Shown piece by piece: positions 20,946 through 64,000 of a stretch of DNA of 64,000 nt (positions are counted from its first letter, which is position 1; every line of letters starts with the position of its first letter). The notes below the pieces were generated by a model that did not search any database, was not told the origin of the DNA, and saw nothing but the letters and a program-made list of their open reading frames with translations. Made by a program: the position numbers and the translations under genes. Source of the stretch: Psammoneis japonica (lineage: Eukaryota); the NCBI GenBank assembly GCA_008632985.1, contig QPGO01000120.1:62001-126000 (forward strand). The letters are read 5' to 3'.

Positions 20946-21049
20946 TGTGTGGAAGCGTTATAATTGGATCAACTCTAGCGCTTTTTTTTATCATGTATAA
21001 AGGAAGTTACTTTTCTTAGATGTAAAATGTTGTTAGGAGCTCAAGATAC

Positions 21050-39095: not shown

Positions 39096-42000
39096 TGACA
39101 GGATTTGAACAGGATTTGGGTGCGCGCGAAATGTCGCGCGCTGTTTAGTTTGCCGCGCACAGTTTTGTGTGCTTTAGTTCCGCATGTTCGCACGCGATGT
39201 GGTTTGCTTTCGAGCCACAAGACTCACAAGAATGACAACAGCAGCCCGATCACACCGACTTGCACGTCTTTCGGCTCCTGTGACGGTCTCTGAGCGGAGA
39301 CTCATCTGCCATTTAGACAGCAGTGAGGAGTCATTGTTTGAATTCTTGCCATTTGCCTTCAATTTCTGTCAGATCAACAGTCTTGCTCATTGTCAACCCA
39401 TTGAGCAACCGCCATCGTTGTCGTGATTTACCAACGACGCCACTTCAATTCTGCGTGGACCTCCGTGTGTGTTCTACATGCATCGGCAAGTCTGCGCACG
39501 TTCAACACCAGGCATCGGCAGGAAGTTGACGTCACCGTCAAAGCCTCCTTGCCGCTGGACATCTGGATTGATTGTGCCACCTTTGATCGCTGAAGACATG
39601 CATCAAAGGTCACGCCCCAAGTCTGTCCTTGATCCTCATCCCTTGGCACACCCATTCATCGGTTGACGGTCAAGAACCCCACATGTTCAAGGATCTTCGT
39701 CGCTGAAGACATGCATGTGTGCATGTCTTCACGGCCAAGAACTTGCACCCACTCTTCGGACTGCGGTTTTGCTGCCACTCTACAAGCACACTGAGTCCAT
39801 TGCACCTGATCTGCCCCGGACTGCTGGTGCTCTGTGGTTCCACTGGGTCCACGAGGACGACTGTGAGAGCAAGCAGCCGTGACCACAGCCTGCGTTGGGG
39901 CGATGGTGTTTTCCCGCGTTTGTTCGTTCGTCCACAGCGCCCAATGCCTGCGTCAACTGGCCAGCCTGATCGGGAAATCCAACCGACATAAAACAAGAAC
40001 GGTTCGGGGGTCTTGTCCACCTCTGGTCAGCTCACCTGCAGGGGTTTGCAACCCGCTGCTCCGCTCGCAAGCAACCCAAAGCGCCGCTGGCTGCGGGTTC
40101 GGACGTGCCGGCACAACTCTACGGACCGGATGGGAAGTTTGGCACTTGACAACGAACGGGATGGCACAGCCCGGCGACTTCTGATTTTAAGGTAGTTCAA
40201 GATTTCAAGTCAAGTCCATTTCAAGTCAAGTCCACTCTCACCCAAGTTTCAAGTCTGCCCTCGCTTCCCAACAAGAATTGCTTGTCCTGACACCACTTTT
40301 GTCTGCCATGGTTCTCACTCGTCAGCAACAAACCGATGGTTTCGAGCACGTTGTTGGAACCGTGCTTGCCCAAGGTGTTGGGAGCCCTCTTCGTTTGGCT
40401 TTGACCCAAGACGGCACGGACTCGCATCAAGAACTGTTCACGTTCATGCCGTCCCAAATCGACTCGCTTGAGTGCGACAACGGCGCTAATGTGGTCCCTT
40501 TGCCCCGCGGTTATAAGAACATGTTAGCAGCTCTGACCAGTCTGTGCATTGTCAAAGCACACGAAGGTCTTGACGTTGCCAATGACTCCTCGTTGTTCAC
40601 GCATGATGAGTTCCTTGCCTGCCGCCTCAGCCCCGACCACATGTCTTCTGTGTCCGTCGGCAGCTCACCCCTCGCACCTCCGCATGTCACCAACCCGACC
40701 AAGGCACGCGACCCGGTGCGAGACTTCAAGCGAGGCATCAAGCGCGACCCCACCGCTTTCACGGCTCTCAAATCTGACAAGCAGTGGCACACTTGGCACA
40801 CCTCACTTGTGGCACAAGCCCGTGCCCAAGACGTCGAGTGCACTCTAGACTCGTCGCACAAACCAACCAGCCCCGAAGACAAACTGCTCTTTGCTGAACA
40901 GCAAAAGCACATGTTTGCCGTCTTCGAACGCATTCTTCTCACCGACAAGGGCAAGGCTCTCATTCACGAAAATGTGGGGTCTTCTGACGCCCAGACTGTC
41001 TGCCGCGCCTTGTCTGAGCATGCGCTCGCCTCCACCCGCGCATCCATCAAGTCCTCCACCTTGCTCACGCACCTCACCACCGCACGTCTTGGTGATGGCA
41101 CTTGGAAAGGTCCGACCCACGGGTTCATCCTCCATTGGCAAGATCAGTTGTGCAAGTGCGAGGCACTCATCCCGGCCAGTGACCACTTCTCTGAAGGACA
41201 GAAGCGCGTCATGCTAGAGAATGCCGCACACCCTGTCGAGGAACTCCGTGCTGTCAAGAACCAAGCTGATCAGCATCGTGCGCAGAGTGGCAAGAGCCTC
41301 ACATGCGATCAACACTGTGGCTTGCTCCTCTCCGCGGCGGCTCAATGCGACAGTGCGTTTCAACCCAAGACAACACCTCGAGCTCCCCGACGTGCCATGT
41401 GCGCACACGACATCTGCTCCGAGGAACCGTCCGACGATGTGTTCTGCGACATTGACAGCGACATTGACGTCCTTCAGGCCAATGCTGCCTGCACCCGTGG
41501 TCCCAGCCTCACCGGTGACCAATGGAAACGTCTCCCTCCCGACCACCAACGGATTTGGGATTCGTTGCCCCATTCCTCCAAGGCGATCATCCTTGAGCAT
41601 TCTCATCCGCCTCCCCGCAACCCGCGAGCCAGCAACTGCCATGAGTCCGTTACGGCCAACCTTCACGACCAACGCCTTGGGAGTGACGGTGATGTCAACT
41701 TGTCCAACACGACTCCTGCTGACTCTGGTGACTCCGCTCCAAATGTGGGTGCCACTTTGGACAATCCCATCCTGGCGCACCTCACCAAGTGCAAGCCACT
41801 GCCACCCGGTGATCTGCAACATCTGTTGTCTCCTAACCAAGCCCCCAACGCCAGTCGACCGGGGCCATCCGCCGCTCCCTCTACCCCGCCAGCTTCTGCC
41901 GATGACATGGAACTTGCGGCCACACTTGCCGTCGCGTCAACAACCACAATGTCATTTGCTCTGCCTCTGCTCATCGCTCCACACACACTGGTGCTCTAGT

Positions 42001-45000
42001 CGATCGTGGGGCCAATGGCGGCATTGCTGGCGACAACGTTCGCGTCATTGCACGCACCTCTCGCCAAGTCAACGTTCAGGGCATTGAAGACCATCAATTG
42101 GTGGACATCCCTGTTGTCGCCGCTGGTGCCGTCATTGAGACCCAGCGTGGTCCCGTCATCGCCATCCTCCATCAGTGCGCATGCACGGGCAAGGGCAAGA
42201 CCATCCATTCCTGCGGCCAGCTCAAATGGCACAAACAGGATGTCAACGATCGCTCTGTCAAGGTGCCCAACGGCTTGCAACGCACTGCCACTCCTGATGG
42301 CTGTGTCATCCCCATTGACATCAAGGGCGGCCTGCCTTTTGTTGCCATGCGACCTTGCACTGACGCCGAATGGGACACCCTGCCCCATGTCATCCTCACC
42401 GGTGATGACACATGGGATCCTTCCGTCCTCGATCACTCTGTCACTGACGACGACCAGTGGTGCGATGCGATCTCTGACCTGCAGGACGATCCCACTGCCA
42501 ACCCATTTGACGAATGCGGCAACTGCCGTCATCGTGTCGTTGTCAATGAGACCATCATGTCCGCTTCCTTGTCTGCCGATCACGTGTCCGCCCTCGATGA
42601 TCACCTCATTCCGAACAACGACGTGTTCCACGAGTGTCATCCACACGCGATTGACCCCAAGGACGACGACGTTCCGCCCCCGGAGCAAACTGTGCAGCCC
42701 AAGGACCCCCCCTTCGAGTCTCTTCGGCCTCACTTTGGCTTCCTCCCTGCCGATGCGGTCCGTCGCACTTTTGACTGCACCACGCAGTGCGTCCGCATGC
42801 CCGCCAGTGCACGCCTTGGGAAGGCCTGCAAATCACCCAACCCCGCCCTTAATGTGCACCGCCGCAACGAGCCCATCGCCACTGACACCGTTCATGCCGA
42901 CACCCCGGCCGTCGACTCTGGTTGCACCAGCGCCCAACTGTTTGTTGGCACCGAGTCCACCGTCACTGACGTTTACGGCACCAAGACGGACAAAGAGTTT
43001 GTCAACACACTCAAGGATCAGATCCGGGAGCGTGGTGCCCCATCCAAACTCATTGGCGACCGTGCTCAAGTTGAGATCAGCAACAAGGTGCTCGGGATCC
43101 TACGAGCCCTCTTCATCTCCAGCTGGCAAAGTGAGCCTCACCAGCAACACCAAAACTTTGCCGAGCGTCGACACCAGACCGTGAAGCGCATGGCGAACAC
43201 TGTCATGGATCGTTTTGGTTTGCCCGCCCACACATGGCTGCTGGCGCTCATGTGTGTGTGCTTCACACTCAACCATGCAGCGTCCCCACGTCTCCACTGG
43301 CGCACGCCCCTCGAGACTCTCACTGGCTCCACCCCGGACATCAGCCCATTGCTTCGCTTTCACTGGTGGGAACCCATGTGCTTCCACCTCGATGACTCCG
43401 ATTGGCCGTCCGAATCCCGTGAGTTGCGTGGACGCTTTGTTGGCATTGCTGAGCACGTCGGCCACCAGATGACCTTCAAGATTCTCTCTGATGAGACTCA
43501 GAAGATCCTCTGCCGGTCCAACGTACGCTCCGCCACCACCGATCCTGCCGTTCGAAACCTGCATCTTGATCCTCCTGATGGGGAGCCACCTGAACCCATC
43601 ATCAAATCTCGCCATGACGACAACCCCGTCGATTCTCCTGATGGGGAGATCAGGACACCCAAGATGCCAGTTTTCGATCCGCAAGACATCATCGGACGCA
43701 CCTTCCTCATGCAGCCACAAGAGGACGGACAACGCCACAGAGCTCGCATCGTCAAGGCCGTCGAAGACCACGAATGGAAAGTGAGTGGCAATCCCGAGCT
43801 CACTAAGTTCGTCTGCTCTGTCAACAACGAGGAATGCGAGGAAGTCCTTGCCCACAATGTCATCATGAATCACATTGAGCAAGAAGACGAAGACACTGCT
43901 GTTTGGAAATTTCGACACATCGTGTCACACGAAGGACCTCTGAAGCCTCATGACCCAACCTGGAAAGGCTCAAGCTACAACATCATGCTTGAATGGGAAA
44001 GTGGGGAGATCACGTCCGAGCCTCTTGCCATCATCGCCAAGGATGACCCCGTCACCTGCGCCATCTATGCACGAGAGAACGGACTTCTCGACACTGATGG
44101 CTGGAAGCGGTTCCGCACCATCGCGAGGCGCCAAAAGAAGCCATTTCGCATGGCCAACCAAGCCAAGCTTCGCTCCTTCTGCACTGCACCTCGCTGCAAG
44201 TACGGATGCGAAGTTCCCCGGAACTGCAAACACGCCATGTCACTAGACGAACGCAACGGCAACCGCAAATGGGGAGATGCAACTAATCTCGAGATGGACC
44301 AACTCGAGGAATACGAAGTCTTCCATGACTGCGGGCCCTTCGAGTCTTCCACTCCTCCTGCGGGACACAAGAAGATCCGAGTGCACCCAGTGTACGACGT
44401 GAAACACGACGGTCGCCACAAGGCACGACTCGCAGCCGATGGGCACCTCACAGACGTGCCTGTCGACAGTGTCTGCTCCGGAGTGGTCTCCCTCCGTGGC
44501 CTTCGGCTGATGATTTTCCTGGCCGAACTCAATGAGTTGGAGACATGGGCCACCGACATTGGCAATGCCCACCTTGAAGCCACCACCAAGGAGAAGCTTT
44601 ACATTGCAGCCGGACCCGAATTTGGCAAACTCGAAGGACACATCCTTGTCATCCACAAGGCCCTGCATGGACTGCGCAGCTCTGGTCTCCGCTGGCACGA
44701 GCACTTCGCCGACTGCCTGCGAGCTGAAGGATTCTTCCCCTGCCACGCCGAACCCGACATTTGGATGCACAGGAACGGCGACCACTGTGAACACATTGCC
44801 GTTTGTGTGGATGACCTCGCCATTCCCATGAAGGACCCTCAATCTTTCGTCGACACTCTCACGGAAAAGTGCAAGTTCAAGCTCAAGGGTGCGGGACCCA
44901 TTGAGTTCCATCTGGGTTGCGACTTTTCCCGGGATCCTGACGGAACCTTGTGCCTGTCTCCACGCAAGTACATCGAGCGCATGGTCGACAGCTGCGCCCG

Positions 45001-46199
45001 ACTGTTTGGGGAGAAACCTGCCACCAACGCCCTGTCACCTCTGGAGAAGGGTGACCACCCCGAACTGGACACTTCCGAACTGCTGGGGCCCGATGGCATT
45101 CACAAGTTCCAGTCTCTTGTTGGTTCACTCCAATGGGCAGTGTCCCTTGGTCGAATTGACATTGCCACGGCCGTCATGTCACTCTCTAGCTTCCGAGCTG
45201 CGCCCCGTCAAGGCCACTTGGATCATGCCAAACGCGTCTGTGGGCACCTCTCCAAGATGCGACACGGCGCTCTCCGTGTTCGCACGGAAGAGCCCGATTG
45301 TTCGGATCTCCCTGCTCCGGCCTATGAGTGGATGCATTCCGTGTACGGCGAAGCAGAAGAGATGATCCCGAAGGACGCTCCACCGCCCCTTGGCAAGTTC
45401 GTCACTGCCACCCACTGCGTCGATGCAAACTTGCACCATTGCATGCTCACCGGACGCTCTGTCATGGGAATGCTCCACTTCCTCAACAAATTCCCTGCTG
45501 ATTGGTTCTCTAAGAAGCAAGCCACCGTGGAGACTGCGACCTGCGGGTCTGAATTTGTTGCCGCAAGGACTTGTGTCGAGCAGATTGTTGACCTGCGCAT
45601 CACCCTGCGCCACCTTGGCATCCCGATCCGTAATGTCAGTTACATGTTCGGTGACAACAAGTCGGTTGTAGACAGTGCCACCATCCCGCACTCCAAGTTA
45701 CACAAGCAACACACTGCACTGTCGTTCCACCATGTGCGTGAGGCAATTGCCTCTGGTCACCTTGAGTTCCACTTCATCGAAGGCTCCCGCAACCCTGCTG
45801 ACATTCTCAGCAAGCATTGGGGTTGCTCCCAAATCTGGGACCTTCTCTGCCCCCTCATGTTCTGGAACTTCATTCCATCCGAAGTCGAATCTGTTTCTGT
45901 GACTCCTCAAGCAAACTGGGGAGTGACAGGATTTGAACAGGATTTGGGTGCGCGCGAAATGTCGCGCGCTGTTTAGCTCACCGCGCACAGTTTTGTGTGC
46001 TTTGGTTCCGCGCGTTCGCGCGCGATGTAGTTTGCTTTCGAGCCACAAGGCTCACAAGAATGACAACAGTGGCCCGATTGTGCTGACTCACATGTCTTTT
46101 GGCTCCTGCAATGGTCTCTGAGTGGAGACTCATCTGCCATTTAGACAGCAGCAAGGAGTTGTTGTTTGAATTCTTGCCATTTGCCTTCAATTTCTGTCA
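39096..46199 (+). mobile_element. Full-length Ty1/copia (CoDi-like) LTR retrotransposon, hypermutated
   Basis: 276-bp LTRs 39096-39371 and 45924-46199 (TG..CA); TSD TTTTG (39091-39095, 46200-46204); PPT GGGGAG; domain order gag-PR-IN-RT-RH. Confidence 0.97.
40308..45976 (+). pseudogene. gag-pol polyprotein of the copia element (one frameshift near 41910; Tyr mostly replaced by Cys/His)
   Basis: FKRGIKRD (gag), ALVDRGANGG (protease), ATDT..GDRAQVE..QNFAER (integrase), KHDGRHKARL, DIGNAHL, CVDD (RT), CGSEFVAAR..NPADILSKHW (RNase H). Confidence 0.93.
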
Positions 46200-47530
46200 T
46201 TTTGCAGCGCCAAAAGCTGGCTCTGCAGGCTGGATTTGCACTGACACCTTCTTTGACCTCGCCTGTTGCTGCTCGCTGGTGTGTGACAGCAAGCCACAAG
46301 CTGCTGTCATGAAACAAGCATGTCACCAGCCAGCTTGTCCTTTTTGGGGAGAGGGGTGGCTTGTGCAAAAATGCAAGGAAGGGGGCATGCCACATCATTG
46401 AGAGAATGATGCCCGCCCTCAGTTTTTGAAGCTGTTGCTGCTCCTTCAATGACAGGAGCAGGAAAAAAGAGCAAGGTGATGGCCAAGCGGGGGCACGTGT
46501 CAACGGCATCTTCAGATCATGTCAAACACAGAGTGCTCTGCTGACCAAGAAAAAAGCTTTGTGAGCAAGTCTCAGTGCAGAGGAGGAGAGCACCACACTG
46601 CTTGAATGCAGCAACAATTGTCTTGCTTTGGCTGTTTGTTTTTTTCATTGGAGCAGCTGCAGGGAGTGCCCTGTTGCTGAGCTCTGCGGGGGGGCATGGA
46701 CCTGCAAGGCCGCGAGATGCAGAGAGACAAGCCACAGCAATGTCGTCCCATGCACAACATGAGTTGTCAAGGGAGATCTGCAGGGATGGAGTTTTCCAGC
46801 AGGAGAAGGAAATCCCCTGTGGTGTGATTGAAAAGCCACACAGAGGCTGCACTTTGCACATTGTGCAAAAAGCATGCCGGGCGTGTGTGCGCGTTTTGAG
46901 TTCATTGGGTCAGAGGGGATCTCTGCCTGGCACGTGCATGTGAGGAGGTCACGCGCAATGTCACCCAGTGTTGCGGTGTGAAGACCAGATGGTGCAGTGG
47001 GATGAAACGACATCATGCAGGTGGGGAACGGGAGGGTTTCGGGGTTGGATTGGCAAGTTGTGGTTGAAGTTTGGTGGAGCGGCAAAGAAGCTGGTCAGCA
47101 AGGGATTTGGTGACCGTGAGACTGAGACTTTGCAAGGATCATTGGCTTGGGGTGGTGGTGTGGCATGTGAGACCAAACCTGGTCGAGGTGATGGTGTTCC
47201 AGGCAGTTGTGGCAGTGGGAAGAAGGCCCGATGGGGAGAGTTGGGCATTGGTTGCGAAGAAACTCGCATGGCATGTTGGGCCACTATGACGTCACAACCA
47301 GATGCGATGGAGGCTTCAGACAAAGAGACAAGACACCTGCCGCAGCTCGGATGTGCCGACGTCACAAAATTGAAAATGGTGACATCAGCAGATTTTGTAT
47401 GGTTCGCCCCGTAGAAAGTACCGTAGTACAGTACGTGCGTTGGAAACGCACTCTCGTTGTGCGAAAGAACAATTAATTGTCTCATCACTCTTTTCACAAT
47501 TTTTCAAAAACTCCCTCCAACACGACCAAC

Positions 47531-48125
47531 ATGAAGATTGCTCTCCTCCTCTCCCTCTGTGCCGGCTCCAGCGCCTTCACCGCCCCTCGCTGTAACGCAA
47601 GAAGCACCGCTCTTGCCGCCAGCCGCACCATGGAACCCATGACTCAAGCTCCCATGCAGCGGGCTCCTCCCCCTCGTATGGAACAGCCATACGCCCCTGA
47701 GCAACCCTACTATGGTACGTTCGTAGGCCCTATCTGTTACGATCTATTACTCCCGTTTCCCTCGCCCAATATCTCACTCATTCGAATCATATCTGTCTCT
47801 CTCCGTCACAGCTGAGCCGGCTCCCCCAATGAGGCCGCCTGTCTTGTCTGACCAAGAGGTCATCTGGGGCGCCAAGGGAGGCACGGAGTGGAAGTATGGT
47901 CATCGCAGTAGTTTTGACTCGCACCCCGACAAGCAGACCCGTGATGGATACAACCAGGCCTATGATGGTTCTTATGCTCAAGTCGGACGGGATGGCACTC
48001 CTCTCTATCATGATGGATCTCGCGGTACCGGGGCCGACACTTGGTACCACGCTTCATACAGCAAATACAACCAAGACGGAAGCGGAGAATACGAAACCCG
48101 CCACCGCCCTTCTTACACCTTTTAA
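47531..48125 (+). CDS. Unknown plastid-targeted Tyr/Gly/Arg-rich protein, paralog 3
   Basis: Exons 47531-47714 and 47812-48125; SSA|FTAP presequence; same intron position as paralogs 1 and 2. Confidence 0.85.
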
Positions 48126-48645
48126 AGAGCGTTGCGGAAAAGTCAAGTCTGCTATGTAGGTGCTTGCGAGATTGGGAAAAGCGGAAGTTATGTGGCCGCG
48201 TTTGCTGTAGCTTTTTGTAATTGTGAACACGGGTTGTTGTACAAAATACTCCTTTTTAGCGGCCTTCATTATCTTCTTGAGCTGAAGAATGCATTGCACA
48301 TGCATGCTTTTCGAGTGAGGAACAATAGCATTAGCTTGGTTCGCATAAAGCTCGAACTTGGACTCAATAGAGTCTTCTACTCTAGCTCGTATGAGACCGT
48401 CCAGAAAGATCGGCATTCGTTCGCAGCAGCACAGACTGTGAATTAATCACTGAACATTCAATAAGTGCACTGACGTAGTCAAGACCAAAGCTGAGAAACG
48501 ATTACGTAGAATTCAGGGCAAGCTATTTAGTCGTCTCCATAAAGCCATGTACTTACCGGATCAGAAGGGAGAAGGATAAGGCAGGAGGTAGGAGAAGCGA
48601 AGTCGTCACAGCAAAATGTTCAAGGACAAAGAACCTCAGATGCGT

Positions 48646-48694
48646 TGACGTCATCAAACATTGACGTCAGAAGCTGTGGATTTCTGCCACGTCA
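48646..48694. promoter_or_regulatory. Cluster of TGACGT(CA) bZIP/aureochrome-box-like sites
   Basis: TGACGTCA at 48646 and 48662, ACGTCA at 48689; about 400 bp upstream of the LMF gene. Confidence 0.4.
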
Positions 48695-49083
48695 CATCGT
48701 GTCAACGCGAATCCAAAAAATTTTGGAGTCGGTTGCAGCTCGTCCCTATTAGTTTGAATTAGAAATTCAAATCGATATCTTATTGAATTTGTCTCCTAAA
48801 TGCTGTATTCAAAACATTTTATTTGTAACAAATTATGGATCGACTAGTTCGACTTAACTACGAGTTTTTCGCCCAGTCGTGTGCGTGTCGTGATCCGCGA
48901 TCATAGGTCACGACTCAGAGCATCACACATCACACGCAAAAGCACAGGCCGTGGCAAAAGCGCAAGAGACAACAAAAATGGCGGGAGTTCGCATCGACTG
49001 GGACTGTTGCTCTCCCTCCGCAAAAACATCAGACTCGACTCTTTTCGCCTATCAGCTCCATTAATCGTATTTAGCTAGAAACC

Positions 49084-51473: not shown

Positions 51474-52916
51474 TTACGTAATGATGCGCGAAATCTTAGC
51501 AAGATCAATGGGAGTCCAATAGCGATGGAGGTTCCTCACCATGTTGCTCTCCTCAAGATTCTCCTCCTCATTGCTGTCGCTCGAGGGGATGTCATAGATT
51601 CTGGGACTGTGCCCACCACTCATGATGATGGCCGGACTGAATGTTCCTTCATGACAGAAGTTTTTCGAGTCAAATGTTACATCCTCTGCAACAGCATACA
51701 ATCGTTTCACTCCAGCAGAAACCAACAAATCCAAGCCAATAATGACAAACGGTCTTTCATCCGACGAATCCTGAATGAGAAAGGCGAGCCCGCCCATGTC
51801 ATGCTCGCCAGCCGTACGTCGTACACCAACAATGAGAAAAGCATGAAGTTGGATGTCGTTTGGGGGGCGACCCCAGAAATTGTTGTAGTCGTCGATATCC
51901 ATAGGGGCTTCTTGGAGGTCCCTTTCGCTGGCGTCTTGCTTGAGGTCGTTCCAGTTTCCATGAAAGACACACTTTGTTTTGTCCGCCACATACTTTGGAA
52001 ACAGTTTGAAGTCAGAAGCCACCAGCGCACCATGCTGGCCAAGCCAATATTTGACATTTTCAAACAACAAGTCAATGGGCATGTTGACGTCAAGCTTGTA
52101 GTCCTCTACAACCTTCTTGTTTGGGTTCTGGGGCCTGAGAAGGCGTTCCATCATTGCATCGGGATGACCCCCTTGGGTCATAAAGACATTGGCACAGATT
52201 TCTTCATTTGTGAATTCATCCCGCATGAATCGGCTGATATTCAGAGAGTACTTCTGAACCGCAAAGGGACGATCGTTCGCAGTCACCCCATTTTGGATAC
52301 ATTGGTTGTAACAGATAGCACAGGCTACCGTGACAAGGTAACACACCATTGAAGTCTGTTCTTGTACCCATATTAATGGTTTTTCCACCTGTTTGAACCT
52401 ATCCCGGACGTTGAAAATGGTCGGGGCATCGTCCGGATCGTAAAACTCCTGGTGGCGTCTCAGAAACGTCTCCAGTGGGCAACTAGTAGCAACTTCTCGA
52501 TCCTCATCCGAAACAACTATGTCCCCCCCTTTCCTAACGAGGGCATCGAGCCTCTTTCCAAATGTATGGTTCAAGTCCAACGCATACTGAAATGCTTGAG
52601 CTACCTTTTCCGGTTTCGCGTTGAGGAGCTGCGACAGCAATTTATGCTGATCGCGCATAATAAGAAATGATATTTTTGCACGATCAACTGAATCAAGGCT
52701 GTCCCAATACCCGGGAGCTAATAAACCATTCACTTGTCGCTCCATATCTGCAATGGAAAATTGATCAGCTTTTGCAGGAGGTGTAAGTTGTGCTCCCTCG
52801 TACAGTTCTTTCAACGTCCTCGTCGCGTTCATGGGGGTGCTAAAGCCAACCGAAGACGATGATAGAGTCGAAAGGCTCGTGCTGACAGCTAGCTGCGGAG
52901 TCTCATTCGATGTCAT
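51474..52916 (-). CDS. Divergent papain-like (clan CA) cysteine peptidase-fold protein
   Basis: Q....CY (EQTSMVCY), HAFLIVG and FLIQDS in the order expected for the Cys-His-Asn/Asp triad; intact 480-aa ORF. Confidence 0.6.
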   Translation of the reverse strand: MTSNETPQLAVSTSLSTLSSSSVGFSTPMNATRTLKELYEGAQLTPPAKADQFSIADMERQVNGLLAPGYWDSLDSVDRAKISFLIMRDQHKLLSQLLNAKPEKVAQAFQYALDLNHTFGKRLDALVRKGGDIVVSDEDREVATSCPLETFLRRHQEFYDPDDAPTIFNVRDRFKQVEKPLIWVQEQTSMVCYLVTVACAICYNQCIQNGVTANDRPFAVQKYSLNISRFMRDEFTNEEICANVFMTQGGHPDAMMERLLRPQNPNKKVVEDYKLDVNMPIDLLFENVKYWLGQHGALVASDFKLFPKYVADKTKCVFHGNWNDLKQDASERDLQEAPMDIDDYNNFWGRPPNDIQLHAFLIVGVRRTAGEHDMGGLAFLIQDSSDERPFVIIGLDLLVSAGVKRLYAVAEDVTFDSKNFCHEGTFSPAIIMSGGHSPRIYDIPSSDSNEEENLEESNMVRNLHRYWTPIDLAKISRIIT

Positions 52917-53348
52917 TGTTCAGCTTTTATGACTGTTTGACAGTTTCGGCGGCACGATCATGATAGTAGAGATTACTCTCTCTACAGCGAGAGTTTTCAA
53001 CCGTTTGTTTTGGTCACGGGTCACAGAAAATTTTTTTTGGAGGGACGCGGAGCGTCCCTGGAGGGACATTTGTCCCGCGGAGCGGGAGGGACGCGCGAAG
53101 CGCGCCCCCGAGGGACAGGGTGTCCCTCGGGTCCCTCGCAAATCGGCCGGAAATCGACGGGTGGAGCCGGCGACCCGACCGGTCACCCTGCGACGGACGA
53201 CAGACGGTCCGACCACCGCACTACCGCCGCTCGCTCGTTGCTGCTGTTGCACCAACAACAGGGCCTAGTCTACCGTTTTCATTGCCATTGTTGCGATTCG
53301 TTGCGATTGGACTTGTATGGCATACGCTGTCGGCATCATTTGTCCATA

Positions 53349-55800
53349 ATGCCATCTCTCATCAATGAAAAAGATGCTCCAACTGCACAGGCCCAGGACG
53401 GGTTGGAACCACCAGCAACCACTGCAGCAGGCACCATCTTCTACTCGCATCATAACAATCCATACAAGAAGGACAAGTCCAGCGACGAGCCGAGCGACGA
53501 GGCAAAAGCGAGTGAGGTGGACCACATCAATCGACTTGCCACTGAGCTTGAGGCCTCCTTTTTGGAAGATTCAAACGAGGATGAGGCAGAAGAGCGCGAA
53601 GACGAATCCATCATGCTCCAAGCATACGCAGAAATGCAAGACAAAGCAGACCGAACCGAAGATGGCTACAAGACGGCGGTAGCAGCATTTAATATTTTTG
53701 CCAAAAAAACAGGATATCCACCAGTCCATCAGTTGGAACGAAAGCATCTACGTGGAGAGACTCTCACCGTGCCGAACTGCAGTAAATTGATGAGGCAATT
53801 CTGCACTTTCTTAATGGAGTACAAGATTGAACGCGAAGGTGCTCGCAAGGGGACTCATTGGAAGCCTAAGTCGCAGGCACAATATCATTCTGGTGTGTAC
53901 ATGGTGCTCAAGAATAAGTTGGGGCATAGGGCACTTTACAAAAAATCCGAGCATGACGAACTCAACAAAGCCCTAAAGTGAGGGCCCGTGTTGCGGCTAT
54001 CAAGCGTGGAGAGTCGCCGGAGGATTCGACGGTGGGCCTTCACAGGGAGCTTCTGGAAGAGGTGAATGATGCTCTTCTCAAGAAAGGATGCTATTATGAA
54101 AGAGATATCACCAACACATTGTACCATGCTGTTGGGCGGACGGCTGAGGCAGGTGCATGGGTGTGGGACATAACCGTTTGGAACAGTAGCAAGCAGCAAC
54201 TTGAGAGCGACTGGAGGGAGACAAAAACCGCAAAGAATGGTTTCATGACATGGCACAAGGATGCTGATGGATTCTTGTGTGACAAATATCACTCTATGGC
54301 GCAAACATTGTCACCACCACGGGCAGGCTTGAAACTGCAGATGACGATTCAGTGGAATTTGTGTTTCCAGAGCTGAAAGATCTGGCCAGCGGTGGCGCAG
54401 CTGCAAAGGTGTCTCAAATTCTAAAGAACTTGGTAGATGAAATTGACAACTTGACAAAGGATCACACGAGCCACAGCTTCCGTGTCGGCTCTGCGGATGA
54501 CATGGTGTTCCATCGTTGCTTCAACACTGTTGCTTCCATTGCTCGCGGCAATTGGGATTTCAAGGGTGATTCTGCAGCATTTGGATATTGGACTATGAAA
54601 CTTTTTGTGGCCATGGCAGGAAAGAATCTGTGCCGGTGGGCTGATCCGAAGCAACACGTTTCAGCCCCCAGTTTGGACTGCATTCTCACCGCTGAAAACG
54701 GGCCGGTGTTGAATTCGTGGATTCACAGCTTGTTCTCTACCAATGGAATAAAGGCGCTTGCTGCTGACGGCCATTTGAAAAACTTTCGTCCTGTAATGCT
54801 GGCCACCTTGCTCATGCACCACCAGGAAGTTATTGACCGATACGGATGCAGCGACAAATTAGTGAGGCGACTAATCGACTCGGCCCGAGTTGTTGGCATA
54901 CCGAGCAATCAACTCTTGGAGTGGGGCACGGCAATTAAAGAAGAATTCATTGCAAGTAACGCGGGCAACTTTCACAAGAGTGGCTATACGTCGACCGAAG
55001 AGAAGCAACAAATCCAGATCGACGCTCTGATGAAGCGAGTCGCAAGCATGGAAGCCAAGCAAAAGTCGATGCATGAGGAACTGCGCAGCATGAACAAGAA
55101 CATCGACAATAAGTTGGACCTCATTGTGGACCTTATGTCTGGTTCGCCCCAGTCTTCCCCATTGAAGAGGAAGAAACTGTCACCACCTGAAATGTCGGAG
55201 GATGCGGATAGGACGGAGACTGCTGCAGCGGGGCACGACGCGATGGCTGTCTTGATGCATGCACAGAACACGCAGCCACAATTCAATGCTTACGCTGATG
55301 AAAAGGAACTTCGAGATTCATCGCTTCACGGACTTCTCAAGAAGCTCATTGAATATAGGATCATTGGAGGAGTGCTCAAAATCCTTTTGGTGCTAAGATT
55401 GATCGCAAGCTCAAGGCGAAAGTGCTCAAAATCCTCAACGACATGCACCACCCGAGGAACTTGAATGCGCTGTTTACAAGTGAGGAGAAGGAGTATCTCA
55501 ATGGCAGCAATCGTCCTCATGCAAAGGATGATGACAACTACACGGCTTGGTGGGACAGGGCTTGCAAGACATTGAAATCCGTGTCTCTCAAGTATGTTTT
55601 TAATTTGGTTGAGCAGCACAACAAAGCCGTGCCCTTGTACAACAAGCTGGTTGATGAAAAGAAGGCAGCATCAACCCGCAGCTTCAAAGCTGGCACAAGT
55701 GAGGAGAGGAAGGTTATTGATGGAAAATCCAAATTGGAAACAAAGTGGGAGCTGTTGTTTCCGTGTTGGAAAAACTGCAAACGATGATGAACAAGATTGA
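53349..55800 (+). pseudogene. Tyrosine recombinase split by several apparent frameshifts
   Basis: AVGRTAE (first Arg), SHSFRVGSA (HxxR), ARGNW, then AFGY (candidate catalytic Tyr); shifts near 53980, 54300, 55370 and possibly 55750. Confidence 0.75.
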
Positions 55801-55842
55801 GAAAGAGGGCAAGAGGGCGGCGGCTTAAAAACTCCAGTCACA

Positions 55843-56082
55843 TTGACAGCAGATTAGCATGCTATTTGTATCTCTAGTGTTTATTGTAAGAGTCTTAATT
55901 TTAACAACCTAATGTGCTCTATCATGCGACACCACTGGTAGTTTCGGATCGACGGCAGATTAGCTTACTGTTTGCACTGGCATTCCTTGTAGGAGTCTTA
56001 ATTTTAAATACTACATCATATGCTCTATCACATGTCACATGACATACGTTGGTGTGACACTGTCAATAGTTTCGGATCGACA
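55843..56082. repeat. Degenerate two-copy tandem repeat downstream of the YR gene
   Basis: Blocks gcagattagc, gagtcttaattttaa, tgctctatca and tagtttcggatcgac each occur twice in the same order. Confidence 0.7.
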
Positions 56083-57625
56083 ATTGGGAATCGAAATACT
56101 GCACAACCTGGATCCTTCGTACACGCTTTCCTTAGTGCGCGCTTCTCCAAATTTGAAATTGCTGCATGGTTTCAAACAAAACAGAAATCCATAATTCACA
56201 ATGACACACAATGGAATCAAGCTCATTGGATGAATTATACAATTTATGTTAAGAATGAAACAAGCAACGGGAAAATCGGTGAAAGTATCATTGAGATATC
56301 ACGCCGTAAAGTGGGACACCGGCGGCTCGCATCATCGTGCTGCTGCAGTTTGCTGCGTGCAAATTGACTTGGTGAAATTTTGTGAGGGTTTCGTGTCCCT
56401 TGGAAATTGTGCGTGTTGTGTGCGATTGATTATGTGTCTGTGTATGGCACTTGTATGCGTGTCGTGTCCCTCAGGAATTGGGTGTACTGTCCCTCTGAGT
56501 CGGTCTAACACAGAAAATCTGGAAAGATTGCATCGGCGATCGACGAGGAGTCCTTTTCGACTGCGTTCAGGTCGGTCCCGTAGGCCCTCTAGTAGCTAGC
56601 TACTAGCTAGGGCCCTAGAGCTGGGGCCCTAGCTAGCCAGTAGAGACTGCTCGCCCCCCCTGCGTGCCACTCTATTGATTTAGAGGTGGCTTTCTACGGG
56701 TCGATCATTGATCGAGACCCTCGATCAACGAAGTCTCCAGTGCAGGCGCCTGCAGAGCGTCTACGGTGATCAACGAGACTCGAACCCCCGATCAACGCGG
56801 GAAACCTCACCTCTCCCTCCGAGCTCCGCGTGATGGATTTCACAAAGAACGATGATGACGAGTTGCATTTTCATGCGTCGTGTCACCGACTCATGACTCG
56901 TCAGATGTGAATCAAACCCAAGAGTTGGTTGACAACATGGCCGAAGCTGCCGACACCCAAGAACATGATGGCGGTGCGGCTTCGATTCGCCCCCATCCAC
57001 CCTCACAAACTGTCGATGCGTCATTTGACGCGATGTCAGTGACAAGGGAGTGGGACAAGGAATTGGAGGAGTTCAACCCTGACTCCTTTGAAAGGGACGC
57101 CTCGTGCCATGCAACAAAATGTGGCATCAACAAATGTGGTGCAGTCGATGGAGCTGGAGCCACTGATCAGTCTGCACGACCGCTTGCATTGGAGCAAGTC
57201 GCTCTTTTCAAGGATGCAATCTTTTTTGCAGATCCTTTCACTGACGAATTGTTTTCTGTTTCAACAGAAACCATGAGAGACAAAATGATTCATCGTGGGT
57301 TTCGTCAGGTGCAGGCAAACCACATTGTGGATCTGTCTTGCCTGCCAGCTCCACCCCGGCAAGAACAAGCACAAGATTCAGCAGCACCGCTCGGCGACCG
57401 GTTGCCTCCGTCGACGTTGACGTTGCCAAGAAGTGGTGAGAGCAAGAATTTTGTGCCAAGGCCATTTTTTAAAAAACAGAAGAGAGGAGACATGCGCCAC
57501 TGCAGCAGTCCGTGCATGTGAAGAAAAGGTGGTGGATGGTCGAGATGCAGTCCTGCAGCTGGTGGGATGGACAAGACCTCGGAGGTTGGCAGCAACATGA
57601 ATGGCGACAGAGGCAAACAGACGCT

Positions 57626-60600
57626 TGTTCAAAGTCGTTGTCTAAAAATTGTGGCGAATGTCGTTGTTTCTGTTTGAATCGATTTTGTGATGAGCCATTT
57701 GTTTCGAAGAGAAAATCTGAGTCTGGGTTGCAGTCATGAGATGCGACCAGAATGACGTTGAGTCGTGACTCTCCCTCTCAACCGAGAGAGCTTGCCAGCC
57801 CATGAGAGCCTTTCTAGCCACACGGACCGCATCGGTCTGCAGTCCCTTCGTGAACTGATCGGCTGGTTGCTCTGGAGTGCTGATGGGTTGGACATCGATC
57901 TCCAATTGTTCGACTTTAGTCCCAAACCAGTGGTGCGGGATGCCGATGTGTTTGGTTCGCGGTGACAACTCAGGCATGCGTGCAAACTTGAGGCACACGG
58001 AGTCATCTTTGTGCACAACGGACGTGGGCAGGACAGTCTGCTCAACAGGCGAGTCATCGGTGCCTTGGTTTGCAAGCTCAAAAGCCTTGGAGTGAGTCGT
58101 GATGGGGTTTTGGCGGTCAGACTTTCCGAGTGCGTGGTGGTTGAGTTCCTTGAGAACTTCACGAATGGGGATGAGATTGCGCACAGCTTGAGAAAGTGCG
58201 ACATGTTCCGCTTCCACAGTTGACAATGCCACAAGAGTCTGCAGCTTGGACACCCAGACAAGCGGGCAGCTGGCGCAGCAGACAAGGCATCCAGTCCTGG
58301 ACTTGACAGAAACTGGGTCTTGACCATCTTCCACACCAAATGACCCCGCGAAGTCAGAATCGACGCAACAATCAACTCGATGGTCTTGTGCAGGCTTGAG
58401 AATGAGACCTTCAGCAGCCGTTGCTTTGAGATGCCGGAGTGTCCGCTTCACTGCAGCAGCGTGGGACGCTCGGGGTGCAAACGAAAATTGAGCTGCTTGA
58501 TGTGCAGCATGTGCAATGTCTGGCCGGCTGTTCGCTGCCAAGTGCATCAACATTCCAACAACTGAGCGATGATCGCAGGGTTCATCAAAAGGTGGGCCGT
58601 CCGTGTCGGCACCAACAGCCGCGGGTGGAGCTGGAGCAGATGCTCCATTGCAATCCTGCATCTGTGCGGTGCGCAGGACCTTGTCAATGAGACCGGGTTG
58701 AGTGAGCAGAAATCGACCCTTGGAGGGCTTTTCGATCTTGATGCCGAGAAAGTCACCGACTTCTCCTTCGTCTCTAAGTTCAAATGCGTGGTGATGTTCA
58801 TCGTCGGAGACTCCTAACTTGCGAATTTCTTCCTCTAGAGCTTCAGCTGAAGCTCCAGCAAATGTGGTGTCGTCGACGTGCACCACACACATCATGCCCT
58901 CCTTGAAATACAAACAGGGGTCTGTGGTTGAAGGCACCCATCTGCGCTCGGTTAAACCAGCCCGCAACTTCTCGCAGAAGCCCTTGGGAGACTGTTTTAG
59001 GCCGTGTGGTCCTTTCAAAAGTTTGAGAACCACACTGAGTCCCAACCTTGGCGCAAAACCCTTCGGCGGCGTCACACAAACTTCCTCGGCGATGTCGGCT
59101 TGGCAAAAGGCTGTGGTGTGGTCTGCCTGATGTGTGGTCCATCCCTCCTTTAATGCCGCAGTGAGCATGAGTCGGATGCTGGACCATTGCACAACCGGCG
59201 CGCAGGTTTCGAAGCAGTCGACTCCTTCTTTCTGCAAATCACCGCGGACACAGTGTCGGGCCTTGTGCTTGAGAGGGGTTCCATCTGGGAGTCTCTTGAG
59301 CTTGAGTGCCCATGTTCCTGGAAGTGCATTCACACGCGGCTGACGCTCGACTGCTTTCCAGGCTCGACGATGTGTGAGTGCGTTGACTTCAATGTTCATC
59401 GCCTCAATCCACTCGTCGGCGTCCGGACCTTTCAGAGCATTGTGCAACGAAGGCATGTCAGGGTCCTTGGTTTTCTTGCTAGCTGCGCAGGCTCGTGGAT
59501 CGCCGACATTGATGGCACCACAGTCCAAATCCATCTCAAGAGTCACCAGACAAGCTGGTTGAGCCTCGTGTCCGATCGGCAGTGGAATTTCCTTGACGGA
59601 ACTGAAGCAGACTTTGTCTGCAAACTTGGCAGAGTTGAACTGTCCCTTGGTTGACCGTGAAGACCATCGCAGCCCTGACACTCCCTCTGGATTCGTCAAA
59701 GGAGGTGTCTCGACTGGGGGAGGAGCTGTTGGTTCCGTCGGCACTTCGGGTGGCGGAAGTTCATCACCAACTTGAGGTTCAGGTGGCTGAATTGGCGCAG
59801 AGTCCACAGAGTCTGCAGGAGTTTGAGTCGCTGGTGGGACTGGTGGCGTTGGCTGCTGAGTCGCAGGTGCGACTCGATCGGTGACGTCGTCACAAGAAGT
59901 GGGTGACTCCGGCACAGCAATCGATGGAGTGGGCTCAAAATGGCCGCAAATGCGTGTGGCTCTGGCCAGCTCTCACTCTTCATGTTGACGCTCTGGAGGG
60001 GCAAGCCACTCATCGTGCAAATGAACTGCTTGATCCTTCTCCAGAGGGATGCACATCGATTGGTTGAGACACAGGTGCTCCCAGTGATCAGGTGGATCCA
60101 TCTCCCTCTCGATTGATGGTGCGGCAGTGAAGAGATCGTCAAAGACCACATGACACTGAGGAGCAACACTTCCAGTTTGTAGATTGAGGACCAAAGGAAC
60201 CTCGCTGGAATGGATGGCACTGAGTCCCACGAACAAAGCACGATGAGTGCAAGGTTCCCAACGCGGGAGTTTCTTTCCGGAAGTGAGGGTTGGATCAAGT
60301 GCGTGCGCTGGACATCCCCATGTGTGAATGTCTCGCAAACGGTGTCTTGGCACTGTCAAGCCGGTGAACATGTCCGCTGGGCAATGTCCCTTGGAATTTG
60401 GGGTGACATTGTAGATGTGCGTGGCATGAGAAACAGCCATGGGCCACAGGGAGCTGTCAATTCCCCCTTTCCAGTGGATTGATGCATGAAGCAACATCGC
60501 TCTCGCCATGTTGGAGATGCTTCGGATGCCCCGCTCTGCGACGCTGTTCTGATGATGGGCGTTGGTTCCACAAAAACAGAGACGTTGTTCATGATCTCGC

Positions 60601-63600
60601 ACATGTTGTACAAAAGCGTTGGCCTTGAAAGCACCACTGTCAGCAAGAAATTCTTGGACGATGACACCGTGGTCCAAAGCATGTTTCTCATGCGCTTGCT
60701 TCGCTTGCATCGTCTCAACAGCGGAGAAACCGAGTTGGTGCTCGACCTGGACACAACCAGAGGCGTGGTCGACAAAGATGCAACCGCCCTTGAATTGCTT
60801 GGACGTGGCTTTGCCATGTGAGTCAAAGGTTCGGCCTAAAAGGCGCGACTCAAAATGATCAACGCTGACAGCCTGACCCGGTCGAAGATGGTCAGCTCGA
60901 AGGGCCCCGTCGCGTTCAGGGACTGTCGACTTGTGAGCAGATCCAAGGGAGCGTCTGTGACCTTTAGCACACTCGCATGCCTCGCATCTTGGGTGGTCAC
61001 ACTTCGCTGCGGACTTGAAACGGTTCGATGGGAATGGAACTGCGCGGAGAAGTGCTTGGACGTGACCAAAGTTTAAATGGCCAAAATGGGCGTGCATTTC
61101 GATGAGAAGCTTTTGGCCTGCTGCAAGGTTTTGATTTTCCTTGTTGAGGATTTGTAGATTCACTTGTGGAGCGGCAGATGCGCCCTTGGTCATCGACGCA
61201 ATGGGCAAGTGGCTTGATGGGTGACATGGCACGACCAACTTGCCTGTCCCGTCAACATGTAAATGGAAAGTGGTTTCATCGCCCTCACACTTCCCACGTG
61301 CCCCCTTCTCTTCGTTGAAGAGGCGTTGAGGCGACAGCAGGCGTTGACGGGCTCCAGGGACGCAGTGCGCCATGGTGTTCAGTTGGATGGCAGCGCCACT
61401 TGGCGTGGTGAACACCCACGCAACCGGACCAGCACCCTGGATGGCAAGACCGTTGGCAATCCCATTGATCTGCAAGGGTTTCTTGGGAACAGTCACAGGC
61501 CCCGTAAAATCATCTTTGTCGGGGGCAATGGCCAACGTGGCACCAGTGTCCATGACGACCGTCAGAGCTTCGTCCGACAGACCAATGAGTGCCTGCGGAT
61601 CGGATGCAAGAAGGTCGGCTTGAGAATGTCCGGTGAGCAGTTGGATGGTGGAGGTGTTGTGGACGACTGGCCTGACACGTGCGTCCTCCAACAGTTTCAC
61701 AGGATCTTGAAAATGAGCAGTGTCCACGATGTGATTGGGCAGACAGAGCTCGTCAAACCGGAAGAAATCTGGGCTGAAGTCCTCAAGAGCGTCGAAGAAA
61801 CACTTCTGGTCGTCAAGAGGTTCCAGTTCCTCGCAGGTGTCAAAGAAGGCTGATTCGTCTATCGTGTCAGACCTTTCAGCTGCTTCCAGGCTCTCCCAGT
61901 GGGCCTTGAGACGAGTGCTCAGTGCGTGTGACGGATGGCGCGCGACAAACTCGGTGAGCACTTGCGTGCCTTTGATCCTGTGACATTCGAACAGTGACCC
62001 CGCATCCAACACTATCCAGTCATCCAGCTCTTCCACAACATGGTAGACTTGAGAGCCAGCGGTCGAAAAACAGCTTGGTGCGTTCGAGAATGGACACTCG
62101 GGCTGTCGACCGGTGCAAACTGCTGACCACACCACAACTGCAATGGATGGGACCATCCAAGACGCTGGAAACCCGTGCAAGGTTGGGAGTTTGCCCTGGC
62201 GGTGTAGAGCTCAAGGGATGCTTGTGATCGGAGCAAAGCAAAAGTGCAGCGCCGTTTCCCAAAACATGGCGGCGAGCCAGAATGTGAATGGCTTGACCCG
62301 TCCCAAGATTGATCGACGCGAAGTGGGCTCGTCTTCGACGTCCTCGTGACAATCATCCGCATCCAGGATCTCTGGATCGTAGAAATCGAAGCCACGACAT
62401 GTGACACACGGAGGTGAGTCGTCGTTTGCGTCTTCAAAGTGTGCGTCATGTTCAAGGATGAGATCTGACTTTGTGTCGTCTGACAGCATGTCCGTCAAAT
62501 TTGTGGGAGCGTCAAAGAACTCATCTGGATGCTTGACAGAGTGCAGCTTCAAGGCCGGAAACAACTCAACAGCCGGTGGTTCGTTTTCAAATGTAGAGAA
62601 AGCGTTGGAGTGTTCGCAGAAGTCATCGGCGTCTTCGGGAGTGACAGTCTCAACCACGATGGGAGACACGACTGGATCCACAACTGAGGTGAGTGCAGGT
62701 GGGCTCGTTTCGTTGCAAAGCACCTCCGTGCTAACGACTGCATCGCTCTCCCTCTCGGCCGAAGAAGCCAGAGCAACAATGATTGCAGCAGTGACAGGGT
62801 CGGAAAAGAAATCCGGGTCGGCAACGGCATCCACAGCCGCGCACCACATTCCCGTGAAAACCAACTCGTTGGGGTCGGACTCATCTCCCTCTGGTTCCTT
62901 GGCAGTCTGAGCTGGCGGACCCATGGGCACGCCACCATCCGGATCAGCAACGGAAGACAGATTCCCGGCTGGGGTTTCCTTGGGAGGATGCCTGTGGTCT
63001 TCGGTGTTTTCCACGGCAGAGTGCTTCTGGCAGATTCCAGGTTTTTGGCACCCTTCGCCTTGCACGTGGCACACCACTTCCACTCTTTGCCATTCTCATC
63101 CTTCTTTGTTTCTCCGTCAAATTTAATGCGCCAGGCAGTGATGGGTCTCCGCTTCTTCTTGGAAGGGTCGTCTGTGGGCGGCGGATTCGTGGGAGGATCG
63201 TCGCGCGGCGGTTTGGCATTGCACTTTGGGCACGTCTTCTTGGTGCACCCCTCAAGACCGCAACCATGACAGTGCTTCGTCTTCCCAGGGTTGTCCGTAG
63301 TCGAAAGATCACTCTCGGGCAGCTCAGTGACCAAAGCAGGCCACTCCCTGTCCTTCACGAGTTCATTGTGTTGCTCCTGAATCCACGCAATGATGCCGAC
63401 CGGTCCGAGCGTGTTGCAATCGCTGTCGGACGTGATGTCAGCAGGATTCTTGAGGCGGCACTTGCGTTCCATGGCCTTGACATCGTTGAGCTTGTTGTGG
63501 ACTCTCCGATTGAAGCATTCAGAGGACGCAGAGGAGATCTTGTGGAGTGGCTTGGAGCTTGTGTTCACCGGAAGCGCGCAGTTGGTCTGCACAATTTTTA

Positions 63601-64000
63601 CGATGTGAAGAGCTTCGGCAGCAAAGTCCGTGCAATCCTTGCTGGGACAGCCAGCCAAACTGAGGTCTTCTAGCTGCTTCTCAGCTGTCTCAATGTCCGT
63701 TAGAGCGCCAGCATTGCAAGCATCGAGAGCCATCATGAACAGAACAGATCCAGGGCAGTCTTGGCAGTCCTTGAGATGGTTGAACTTGGTCTCGATTTTC
63801 TCGCAAAAGGCATCAGTGATGCTTGAGTGAACAAGCAGCTGAGAGAGCCCGATGTCGTTGAGCTTGATCTCGTCGCACTTGGTGTCATCGGCAGCTGCTT
63901 TCCTGACCTTGCATTCATTCACGAGATCAGTCACCGTAAACTCGTGGAGATGTTCGAAGACATGTCGAACCTTGTCGTCGCTGTTCTTGACATGGCAGAA
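57626..64000 (-). mobile_element. Ty1/copia LTR retrotransposon, hypermutated, 5' end outside window
   Basis: gag with knuckle-like Cys motif (62549-63934), protease VMDTGA, GAG-pre-integrase H..FGH..CEAC, integrase VSVDH..ADSG..QNSVAER (59973-62180), RT/RNase H (about 57795-59915); PPT GAGAGGGAGAG near 57770; 3' LTR boundary only approximate. Confidence 0.92.

Follow-up and report, generated by a model that had tools for sequence, protein, structure and literature searches.

The stretch of Psammoneis japonica DNA analysed here (hereafter, the window) comprises 64,000 nucleotides (nt) of contig QPGO01000120.1 (NCBI GenBank assembly GCA_008632985.1), positions 62,001 to 126,000 of the forward strand; coordinates below are those of the window. 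This diatom locus holds two Ty1/copia retrotransposons and older repeat debris—in which the dinucleotide TpA is almost absent—interspersed with host genes of ordinary composition. Here, we describe the two elements and the blocks in which they lie, and argue that the loss of TpA probably results from a hypermutation process directed at this dinucleotide in integrated DNA.

Element 1 is, on its sequence features, a complete Ty1/copia element, with long terminal repeats (LTRs) that have TG..CA ends, a 5-nt target-site duplication (TSD) and full-length homologues aligning over both gag and pol. It was inserted into older DNA, itself TA-free. The element and its flanks comprise the following features, open reading frames (ORFs) being given with their lengths in amino acids (aa).

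39091–39095, + strand: left copy of the TSD, TTTTG, identical to the 5 nt that follow the 3′ LTR at 46200–46204
39096–39371, + strand: 5′ LTR, with ends TGACAG...CTGTCA
40278–41999, + strand: gag ORF, 573 aa; tblastn match with residues 1–538 of homologue P0002
42098–45976, + strand: pol ORF (protease, integrase, reverse transcriptase [RT] and RNase H), 1292 aa; RVT_2 match, 7e-23
45924–46199, + strand: 3′ LTR, 90% identical to the 5′ LTR
38144–39090, no strand: left flank, older TA-free DNA; 1 TA in 38144–39096; CpG observed/expected 0.43
46200–47284, no strand: right flank, older TA-free DNA; 0 TA in 1085 nt; begins with the TSD copy

Element 2, which reads as a second copia element on the minus strand and is unrelated to element 1, lies at the end of the window. 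A tblastn search of the window with three full-length copia proteins gave matches limited to these two elements.

56763–64000, − strand: TA-depleted block with element 2, delimited by composition; 34 TA in 57001–64000; extends past the window end
57642–59915, − strand: RT/RNase H ORF, 757 aa, 1 Tyr; RVT_2 match, 4e-33
59973–62180, − strand: protease/integrase ORF, 735 aa, 2 Tyr; the tblastn match with homologues P0124 and P0126 spans 61676–57795
62211–64000, − strand: gag-region ORFs, 0–1 Tyr, assigned by position; no Pfam match

A preliminary description of this locus, made from the sequence letters and a list of ORFs, had pointed out that the element proteins are extraordinarily poor in tyrosine and that conserved tyrosines read as cysteine or histidine. 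Its counts (1 Tyr in the 573-aa gag ORF and 11 in the 1292-aa pol ORF of element 1; 1 in the 757-aa ORF of element 2) proved exact on recount, as did its positions for the YVDD motif of RT, which reads CVDD in element 1 (44804–44815, +; TGT at 44804) and HVDD in element 2 (58869–58880, −). Neighbouring host genes have normal tyrosine content, again as described (1.6–4.6% Tyr in six host ORFs); each of its statements that could be checked proved right. When element 1 pol was compared with 25 full-length homologues (65–73% identical), the 34 columns with conserved Tyr held 7 Y, 15 C, 8 H, 3 F, 1 W and 0 R, whereas all residue classes other than Tyr were retained at 74–100%. In element 2, compared with 30 homologues, none of the 11 conserved Tyr columns kept Y (4 C, 7 H). 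Pooled over both elements, the 45 columns thus hold 7 Y, 19 C, 15 H and 4 other residues: 34/45 have become Cys or His and none Arg, and the two outcomes—TAY to TGY (TG, 19) and TAY to CAY (CA, 15)—are about equally frequent on the coding strand. As a separate observation, 5/49 conserved Arg columns of element 1 pol (42098–45976, +) read His (CGY>CAY) and 0 read Cys (CGY>TGY), which may reflect a strand asymmetry of CpG decay, the numbers being small.

The same footprint appears in other database records. Two copia RT proteins about 36% identical to element 2, P0263 (on a 2.7-kb Logan contig) and P0200 (on a 47-kb NCBI contig), have 0.3–0.8% Tyr, and in each 8/11 of the conserved Tyr read Cys or His; both come from other public assemblies. 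The Tyr-poor proteins P0140 and P0392 were considered as further cases and rejected, 7/11 of the conserved Tyr being kept.

These substitutions are the coding trace of a wider compositional change. In 500-nt windows, the observed/expected ratio of TpA drops to 0–0.2 inside sharply bounded blocks, the edges of which were resolved to about 100–500 nt. The preliminary description had proposed such a sliding-window analysis; TpA loss was confirmed at the two elements (blocks at about 38144–47284 and 56763–64000) and was found to extend beyond the region first noted, to about 1941–14295, 18034–18552, 21048–22164 and 26235–31975. Ratios for the blocks and for the DNA between them are as follows.

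TpA: 0.09 in blocks (35,000 nt, 187 TA); 0.57 between blocks (27,500 nt, 1045 TA)
TG: 1.63 in blocks; 1.18 between
CA: 1.57 in blocks; 1.17 between
CG: 0.58 in blocks; 0.94 between
AA: 1.17 in both
AT: 0.90 in blocks; 0.95 between

The GC content of the blocks is raised (0.53–0.575 vs about 0.47–0.50 elsewhere). The unchanged AA ratio is the reason for rejecting one candidate of the preliminary description, Pol eta-type error-prone repair (WA>WG), which is contradicted by ApA standing at 1.17 in blocks and host DNA alike. Because TAA and TAG stops have been nearly erased (127 and 117 triplets in blocks vs 464 and 479 in a smaller amount of host DNA, i.e. about four-fold rarer; TGA is not rarer), overlapping ORFs of 150–390 aa occur in several frames and on both strands of the blocks (e.g. 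at 40278–45976). Gene callers may be misled by such long false ORFs, and Tyr-poor, Cys/His-rich database 'proteins' may be products of TpA hypermutation.

Neither of the two familiar processes that rewrite repeats explains these changes, as the preliminary description had also maintained. Repeat-induced point mutation (RIP) of ascomycetes is similar in that dense transitions strike mobile or duplicated DNA within sharp edges, inactivate the genes of elements and can be read from dinucleotide composition, but in RIP CpA/TpG becomes TpA (C>T) and GC falls, whereas here TpA is destroyed (0.09), CpA and TpG stand at about 1.6, Tyr is lost and GC is raised. Fungal RIP is therefore a functional analogue only, of opposite chemistry. 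As for a duplication trigger, a feature of RIP, high-copy families are affected in the window, but so is a stretch at single-copy depth (46173–47215), which is possibly an old diverged repeat. Deamination of 5-methylcytosine (5mC) at CpG yields the same products, TpG and CpA, and has affected these blocks too (CpG observed/expected 0.58), but it cannot convert TAY to TGY or CAY.

The two LTRs of one element are copied from one template and are identical at integration, so that differences between them record what has happened since. Over 275 columns, the LTR pair of element 1 differs by 8 TG↔CA, 2 TA↔TG/CA and 8 CG↔TG/CA changes and 2 other transitions, with 0 transversions and 0 indels. Two repeat pairs from older blocks behave likewise: one in block 1 has 6 TG↔CA, 4 TA↔TG/CA, 2 CpG, 2 other transitions and 1 transversion, and one in block 2 has 2 TG↔CA, 1 TA↔CA, 3 CpG and 1 transversion. 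Across the three pairs, 23 of the 42 differences are TA-derived, 13 are at CpG, 4 are other transitions and 2 are transversions; in a duplicated host gene examined for comparison, there were 0 TG↔CA against 45 other substitutions. A TG↔CA pair can descend from either an ancestral TA or an ancestral CG, but an origin from CpG only was rejected: given the 14 shared and 8 half-changed CpGs of the LTRs, 0.57 such pairs are expected and 8 are seen (P ~2e-7). The TG↔CA pairs therefore mark ancestral TpA that was mutated independently, with differing products, in each LTR, and the process thus acts on integrated DNA. Taken together with the near-equal TG and CA outcomes at Tyr codons, this means that TpA was changed after integration, at the DNA level and on both strands. 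The proposal of a TpA-specific A:T>G:C process acting on both strands of integrated mobile DNA, which the preliminary description had put forward for repeats, is borne out by the Tyr outcomes, the LTR pair and the unchanged ApA and ApT. Roughly, and assuming that hidden concordant sites are as numerous as discordant ones, about 85% of LTR TpA targets would have been lost, compared with 22% of CpG targets (per copy) and 0.5% of other positions. TpA loss would then run a few hundred-fold above background and about ten-fold above methyl-CpG decay.

The LTR comparison also bears on the deaminase-type hypermutation directed against retroelements in animals, namely APOBEC (C>U) editing of LTR retrotransposons and ADAR hyperediting of repeat RNA (PMC4866542). 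These systems resemble the present one in kind, and ADAR likewise prefers a 5′ U. Both APOBEC (G>A/C>T) and ADAR leave strand-asymmetric changes made before or during reverse transcription, whereas the changes described here are symmetric and post-integration. An ADAR-like A>I editing of retrotransposon transcripts, fixed by reverse transcription, would account for a 5′ U context (the ADAR preference is also noted in the main text of a preprint on the alga Bigelowiella natans; Mettrop et al., bioRxiv 10.64898/2026.01.13.699255) and for the fact that the clearest victims are retroelements. It predicts, however, only inherited sense-strand A>G, and we find His (T>C) at 15 sites against Cys (A>G) at 19; it does not account for LTRs that were identical at integration and now differ at 10 TA-derived sites, nor for non-coding flanks outside the LTRs that are TA-free. 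We give RNA editing hardly any probability.

The TpA that survive in the blocks are not a random sample. Relative to host density, survival is 2–7% in ATAT, GTAT/ATAC and TTAT/ATAA, 27% in CTAA/TTAG and 43% in TTAA. A two-strand model in which survival equals exp(−(h[3′ base, top] + h[3′ base, bottom])) fits all ten pooled NTAN contexts, with hazards (h) by 3′ base of 1.82 for T, 1.20 for C, 0.65 for G and 0.52 for A against the host baseline, and of 2.62 for T, 1.21 for C, 0.74 for A and 0.53 for G when 78 related metagenome elements serve as the baseline. Tyr codons allow a check, since the top strand there always reads TAY and the bottom strand reads TAY as well if the 5′ neighbour is a purine: with a 5′ purine the outcomes were CA 10 and TG 5, and with a 5′ pyrimidine CA 5 and TG 14 (Fisher P=0.036). 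From these patterns, we infer that the strands are attacked independently and that the process prefers a 3′ neighbour in the order T>C>A,G (5′-TAY or, seen from the other strand, 5′-RTA).

The preliminary description knew of no described system of this kind. However, one 2026 preprint reports the same signature from Bigelowiella natans, a chlorarachniophyte, in which mutation-accumulation lines were analysed (Mettrop et al., bioRxiv 10.64898/2026.01.13.699255). According to its main text, 231 of 302 nuclear mutations fell in integrated giant-virus (nucleocytoplasmic large DNA virus [NCLDV]) and virophage regions; with a single exception these were A>G or T>C (230 of 231), each of the 230 at TpA, at a rate of about 6e-7 per site per generation—approximately 1000 times background—and in some lines only. 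Reverse transcriptase and DDE domains were over-represented among TpA-poor coding sequences, and the authors put forward a homologue of ADAT2 as a candidate cause, with reference to DNA editing by amphioxus ADAT2 (bioRxiv 10.64898/2026.01.13.699255). The two cases are alike in the change itself (A>G/T>C at TpA, giving TpG/CpA), in its confinement to foreign DNA, in running counter to the usual AT bias, in sparing A and T outside TpA and in the long-term footprint of TpA loss with CpA/TpG gain. They differ in host (a rhizarian there, a stramenopile here), in targets (single-copy viral inserts there, high-copy LTR retrotransposons and old repeat debris here) and in degree: the B. natans NCLDV insert has a TpA Rho of 0.45 and the virophage insert is undepleted, whereas Rho is about 0.09 here. 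The designation 'repeat-targeted', used in the preliminary description, goes beyond what the data show: 46173–47215 has 0 TA at single-copy depth, and the main target in B. natans is single-copy. The main text of the preprint makes no mention of diatoms, stramenopiles, trinucleotides or sequence context, although its supplementary tables may hold per-site contexts. The LTR demonstration of post-integration action and the 3′-neighbour rule are what the present case adds. Our literature search, with most subscription journals outside its scope, turned up no account of this signature from diatoms or stramenopiles; searching by term likewise did not find it in Maumus 2009 (PMC2806351), Hoguin 2023 (PMC9998398), a 2025 preprint on diatom transposable elements and the SPLASH preprint.

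Are the bases real? Four public sequencing runs, all of one sample in one study and none listed as RNA, contain the stretch, the best of them holding 0.75 of the sampled words. Contigs built from exact 31-mers cover host genes at a depth of about 60, and a 1043-nt contig of depth 59.2, i.e. at single-copy depth, matches 46173–47215 (0 TA) with 2 differing letters. The confirmation by Illumina or Sanger reads that the preliminary description had recommended has a partial counterpart in this contig, which repeats the TA-free sequence; its independence is less certain, the runs being possibly the source of the assembly. The element 1 family reaches a summed read depth about 1000 times that of neighbouring genes, which is not a copy number. 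The 40 of 713 differences listed between the window and this family include sites that read TA in other copies and CA or TG in the window, namely 40033 (52% of depth), 40141 (89%), 41446 (75%) and 46004 (97%); many other listed sites are CpG in all other copies and TpG or CpA in the window.

If base calling or assembly had failed at a modified base in repeats, the true DNA would read TA. The platforms of assembly and runs are off record, and a single sample lends that explanation some room. However, error-prone long reads would not yield exact 31-mer contigs at depth ~59 over a TA-free stretch; independent miscalls on the two strands predict Arg (CGY) at one-quarter of Tyr sites, and 0/45 were seen (P ~2e-6); P0263 and P0200, from other assemblies, carry the same Tyr>Cys/His pattern; and Illumina data in B. 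natans, as described in the preprint's main text, capture these changes as they occur. We therefore consider an artefact highly improbable.

A different doubt is whether these elements avoid TpA natively, by selection or codon habit, for which the moderately low TpA of the host (0.57) might be cited. A metagenome scan with peptide patterns that contain no Tyr retrieved 78 related elements, all 78 of which have TA observed/expected ratios of 0.47–1.01, none being depleted. Both elements have lost the catalytic YVDD, TA persists at the same sites in further copies within this genome, and the two LTRs of element 1 disagree in outcome. The chance that native avoidance is the explanation is negligible.

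The blocks might also have arisen without a dedicated mutator, through biased repair, GC-biased gene conversion among copies or a 'very short patch'-like correction of T:G to C:G in methylated chromatin. The great depth of the element 1 family makes ectopic conversion plausible, the GC content of the blocks is raised and CpG methylation decay occurs in the same blocks. GC-biased conversion should, however, raise G and C at ApA and ApT too, and both are unchanged; copies should become more alike under conversion, yet at 8 sites the two LTRs of element 1 have opposite TG/CA outcomes; the single-copy-depth stretch has 0 TA in 1043 nt; and, in the main text of the preprint (bioRxiv 10.64898/2026.01.13.699255), a few hundred generations suffice for the B. 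natans signature to appear de novo in an insert present as a single copy. We regard explanations of this type as very unlikely.

We thus infer that the window records the same kind of targeted hypermutation as in B. natans, in a diatom and near saturation on LTR retrotransposons. For a post-integration, TpA-specific, DNA-level hypermutation that belongs to the B. natans kind, we put the probability at about 0.78, a figure from which the identity of the enzyme is excluded. What the data show directly is that, after integration, a DNA-level process turned TpA into TpG or CpA on either strand, removed about nine tenths of the TpA in affected blocks and spared neighbouring genes and adenines outside TpA; element proteins were wrecked by Tyr changing to Cys or His, the YVDD motif included, and ordinary decay of CpG to TpG/CpA runs in parallel, more slowly.

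Several points weigh against this interpretation. The evidence covers one 64-kb window and one sample, and the runs may be the source of the assembly, with library type off record and read accuracy inferred from k-mer depth. At some of the TG↔CA polymorphisms within the family, a single state accounts for 78–89% of depth, which suggests subfamily structure, and some changes may have been inherited rather than made in this copy. Differences between LTRs carry no polarity and the number of hidden concordant sites was assumed, so the rate ratios are rough. Sequence alone does not tell whether A or the T paired with it is the base attacked. Finally, mobile DNA is unequally affected: a low-copy element at about 53–56.7 kb is just mildly TA-poor (0.29–0.65). 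Two ORFs in 53010–55464 (+) are without Pfam match there, and read depth is raised over about 52780–56763, to about 2–20 times that of neighbouring genes. The second ORF (54352–55464) has 1.4% Tyr (5/370) and 4 database relatives, and the ESM Atlas leads from it to clusters that carry NDC10_II/GCR1_C and DUF3435, domains of Crypton-type tyrosine-recombinase transposons; on this Atlas lead only, the element is probably Crypton-like and may be mobile DNA that was spared or partly swept.

As for the agent of the TpA-directed hypermutation, we take it to be an enzyme, because we know of no spontaneous lesion specific both for TpA and for certain chromosomal segments. TadA and ADAT2–ADAT3, as well as the adenine base editors derived from TadA, target adenine preceded by U or T; the natural tRNA substrate of the family is A34 following the invariant U33, i.e. 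a 'TA' context. To our knowledge, no natural enzyme of the TadA/ADAT family hypermutates chromosomal DNA at TpA. Adenine deamination appears to be the most likely chemistry, at about even odds: adenine in 5′-TA would be deaminated to hypoxanthine and then copied as G, and the candidate enzyme is a deaminase of the ADAT2/TadA type that would be recruited to foreign DNA once this is silenced.

The attacked base might instead be the thymine of TpA, for instance through oxidation to 5-hydroxymethyluracil (5hmU) or 5-formyluracil by a dioxygenase of the TET/JBP type; mispairing of the product with G would then result in T>C. TpA being self-complementary, all results fit equally well as 5′-RTA on the opposite strand, and in dinoflagellates 5hmU is enriched at TpA and TpC, while 5-formyluracil is known to mispair with G. 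The sequence offers no argument against thymine attack; the sole published proposal for the signature, in the main text of bioRxiv 10.64898/2026.01.13.699255, is adenine deamination, itself a hypothesis. We judge thymine attack unlikely.

Returning to deamination of adenine, a further-reaching possibility is that some diatoms have a natural DNA adenine deaminase, guided by chromatin or homology and specific for 5′-TAY, that would act on both strands as a mirror image of RIP and kill families of about a thousand copies. It might be shared with Rhizaria through deep ancestry within SAR (stramenopiles, alveolates and Rhizaria) or have been invented twice. We advance this proposal tentatively, the odds being somewhat against it. 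Related elements in other environmental diatoms are untouched, and the distribution therefore looks patchy.

The single earlier report of TpA-directed hypermutation concerns one rhizarian alga, a mild footprint and two viral inserts (bioRxiv 10.64898/2026.01.13.699255, main text). The diatom case indicates that the process is no peculiarity of one strain or of viral DNA, that it operates once elements have integrated and that transposon families of very large size can be inactivated by it. A candidate enzyme would have to show both the independence of the strands and the 3′ preference T>C>A,G, and a patchy distribution (78/78 related metagenome elements unaffected) would let comparative genomics and phylogenetic profiling point to the gene. 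Should such a diatom deaminase exist, it would be the first adenine base editor from nature that acts on chromosomal DNA. In practical terms, dating by LTR divergence overestimates ages unless TpA and CpG sites are masked.

The other affected parts of the window are two larger blocks and two short islands.

1941–14295, no strand: TA-depleted block 1; 500-nt TpA observed/expected 0–0.22; old, mostly unclassifiable repeat DNA
18034–18552, no strand: short TA-free, CpG-poor island; zero TA between 18033 and 18553; CpG observed/expected 0.25
21048–22164, no strand: short TA-poor, CpG-poor island; a single TA (21782) in 1.1 kb; CpG observed/expected 0.17–0.25
26235–31975, no strand: TA-depleted block 2, delimited by composition; degenerate copia remnant between the repeat pair 27013–27181 / 29412–29580

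Block 1 is also CpG-depleted over 3500–9500 and 11000–14000 and contains, bounded by the repeats 9256–9419 / 12691–12883, a degenerate copia remnant, with a weak integrase SH3 trace at 11368–12516 (−); block 2 has a weak RVT_2 match at 27318–28490 (+). Eighty stop-to-stop ORFs from the older blocks gave just these two weak copia traces. Within block 1, a tandem array at 3148–3696 consists of six copies of a 204-nt repeat at 69-nt spacing (66–90% identity). The island at 18034–18552 lies directly upstream of a copper amine oxidase gene and has no Pfam match; that at 21048–22164 lies between the amine oxidase gene and a DEAD-box helicase gene. The two islands, which flank the amine oxidase gene, could represent solo LTRs or pieces of transposons; neither a domain nor, within the 64-kb window, a repeat partner was found for them.

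The genes between blocks—copper amine oxidase, DEAD-box helicase, amidase and LMF1—all lie in TA-normal DNA; within the window, hypermutation is confined to mobile DNA and host genes are unaffected. The nearest named relatives of the copper amine oxidase are all from diatoms (Seminavis, Thalassiosira, Attheya, Nitzschia, Pseudo-nitzschia and others; 54–67% identity), followed by Ectocarpus (51% identity). A small host gene family is represented by diverged copies at 32365–34083 and 47495–48127 (66–84% identity), with normal TpA; the start of one copy is separated by about 200 nt from the border of a TA-free block. The predicted N-terminus ends in ...SSAFTAP, which resembles the ASAFAP plastid-import motif of diatoms.

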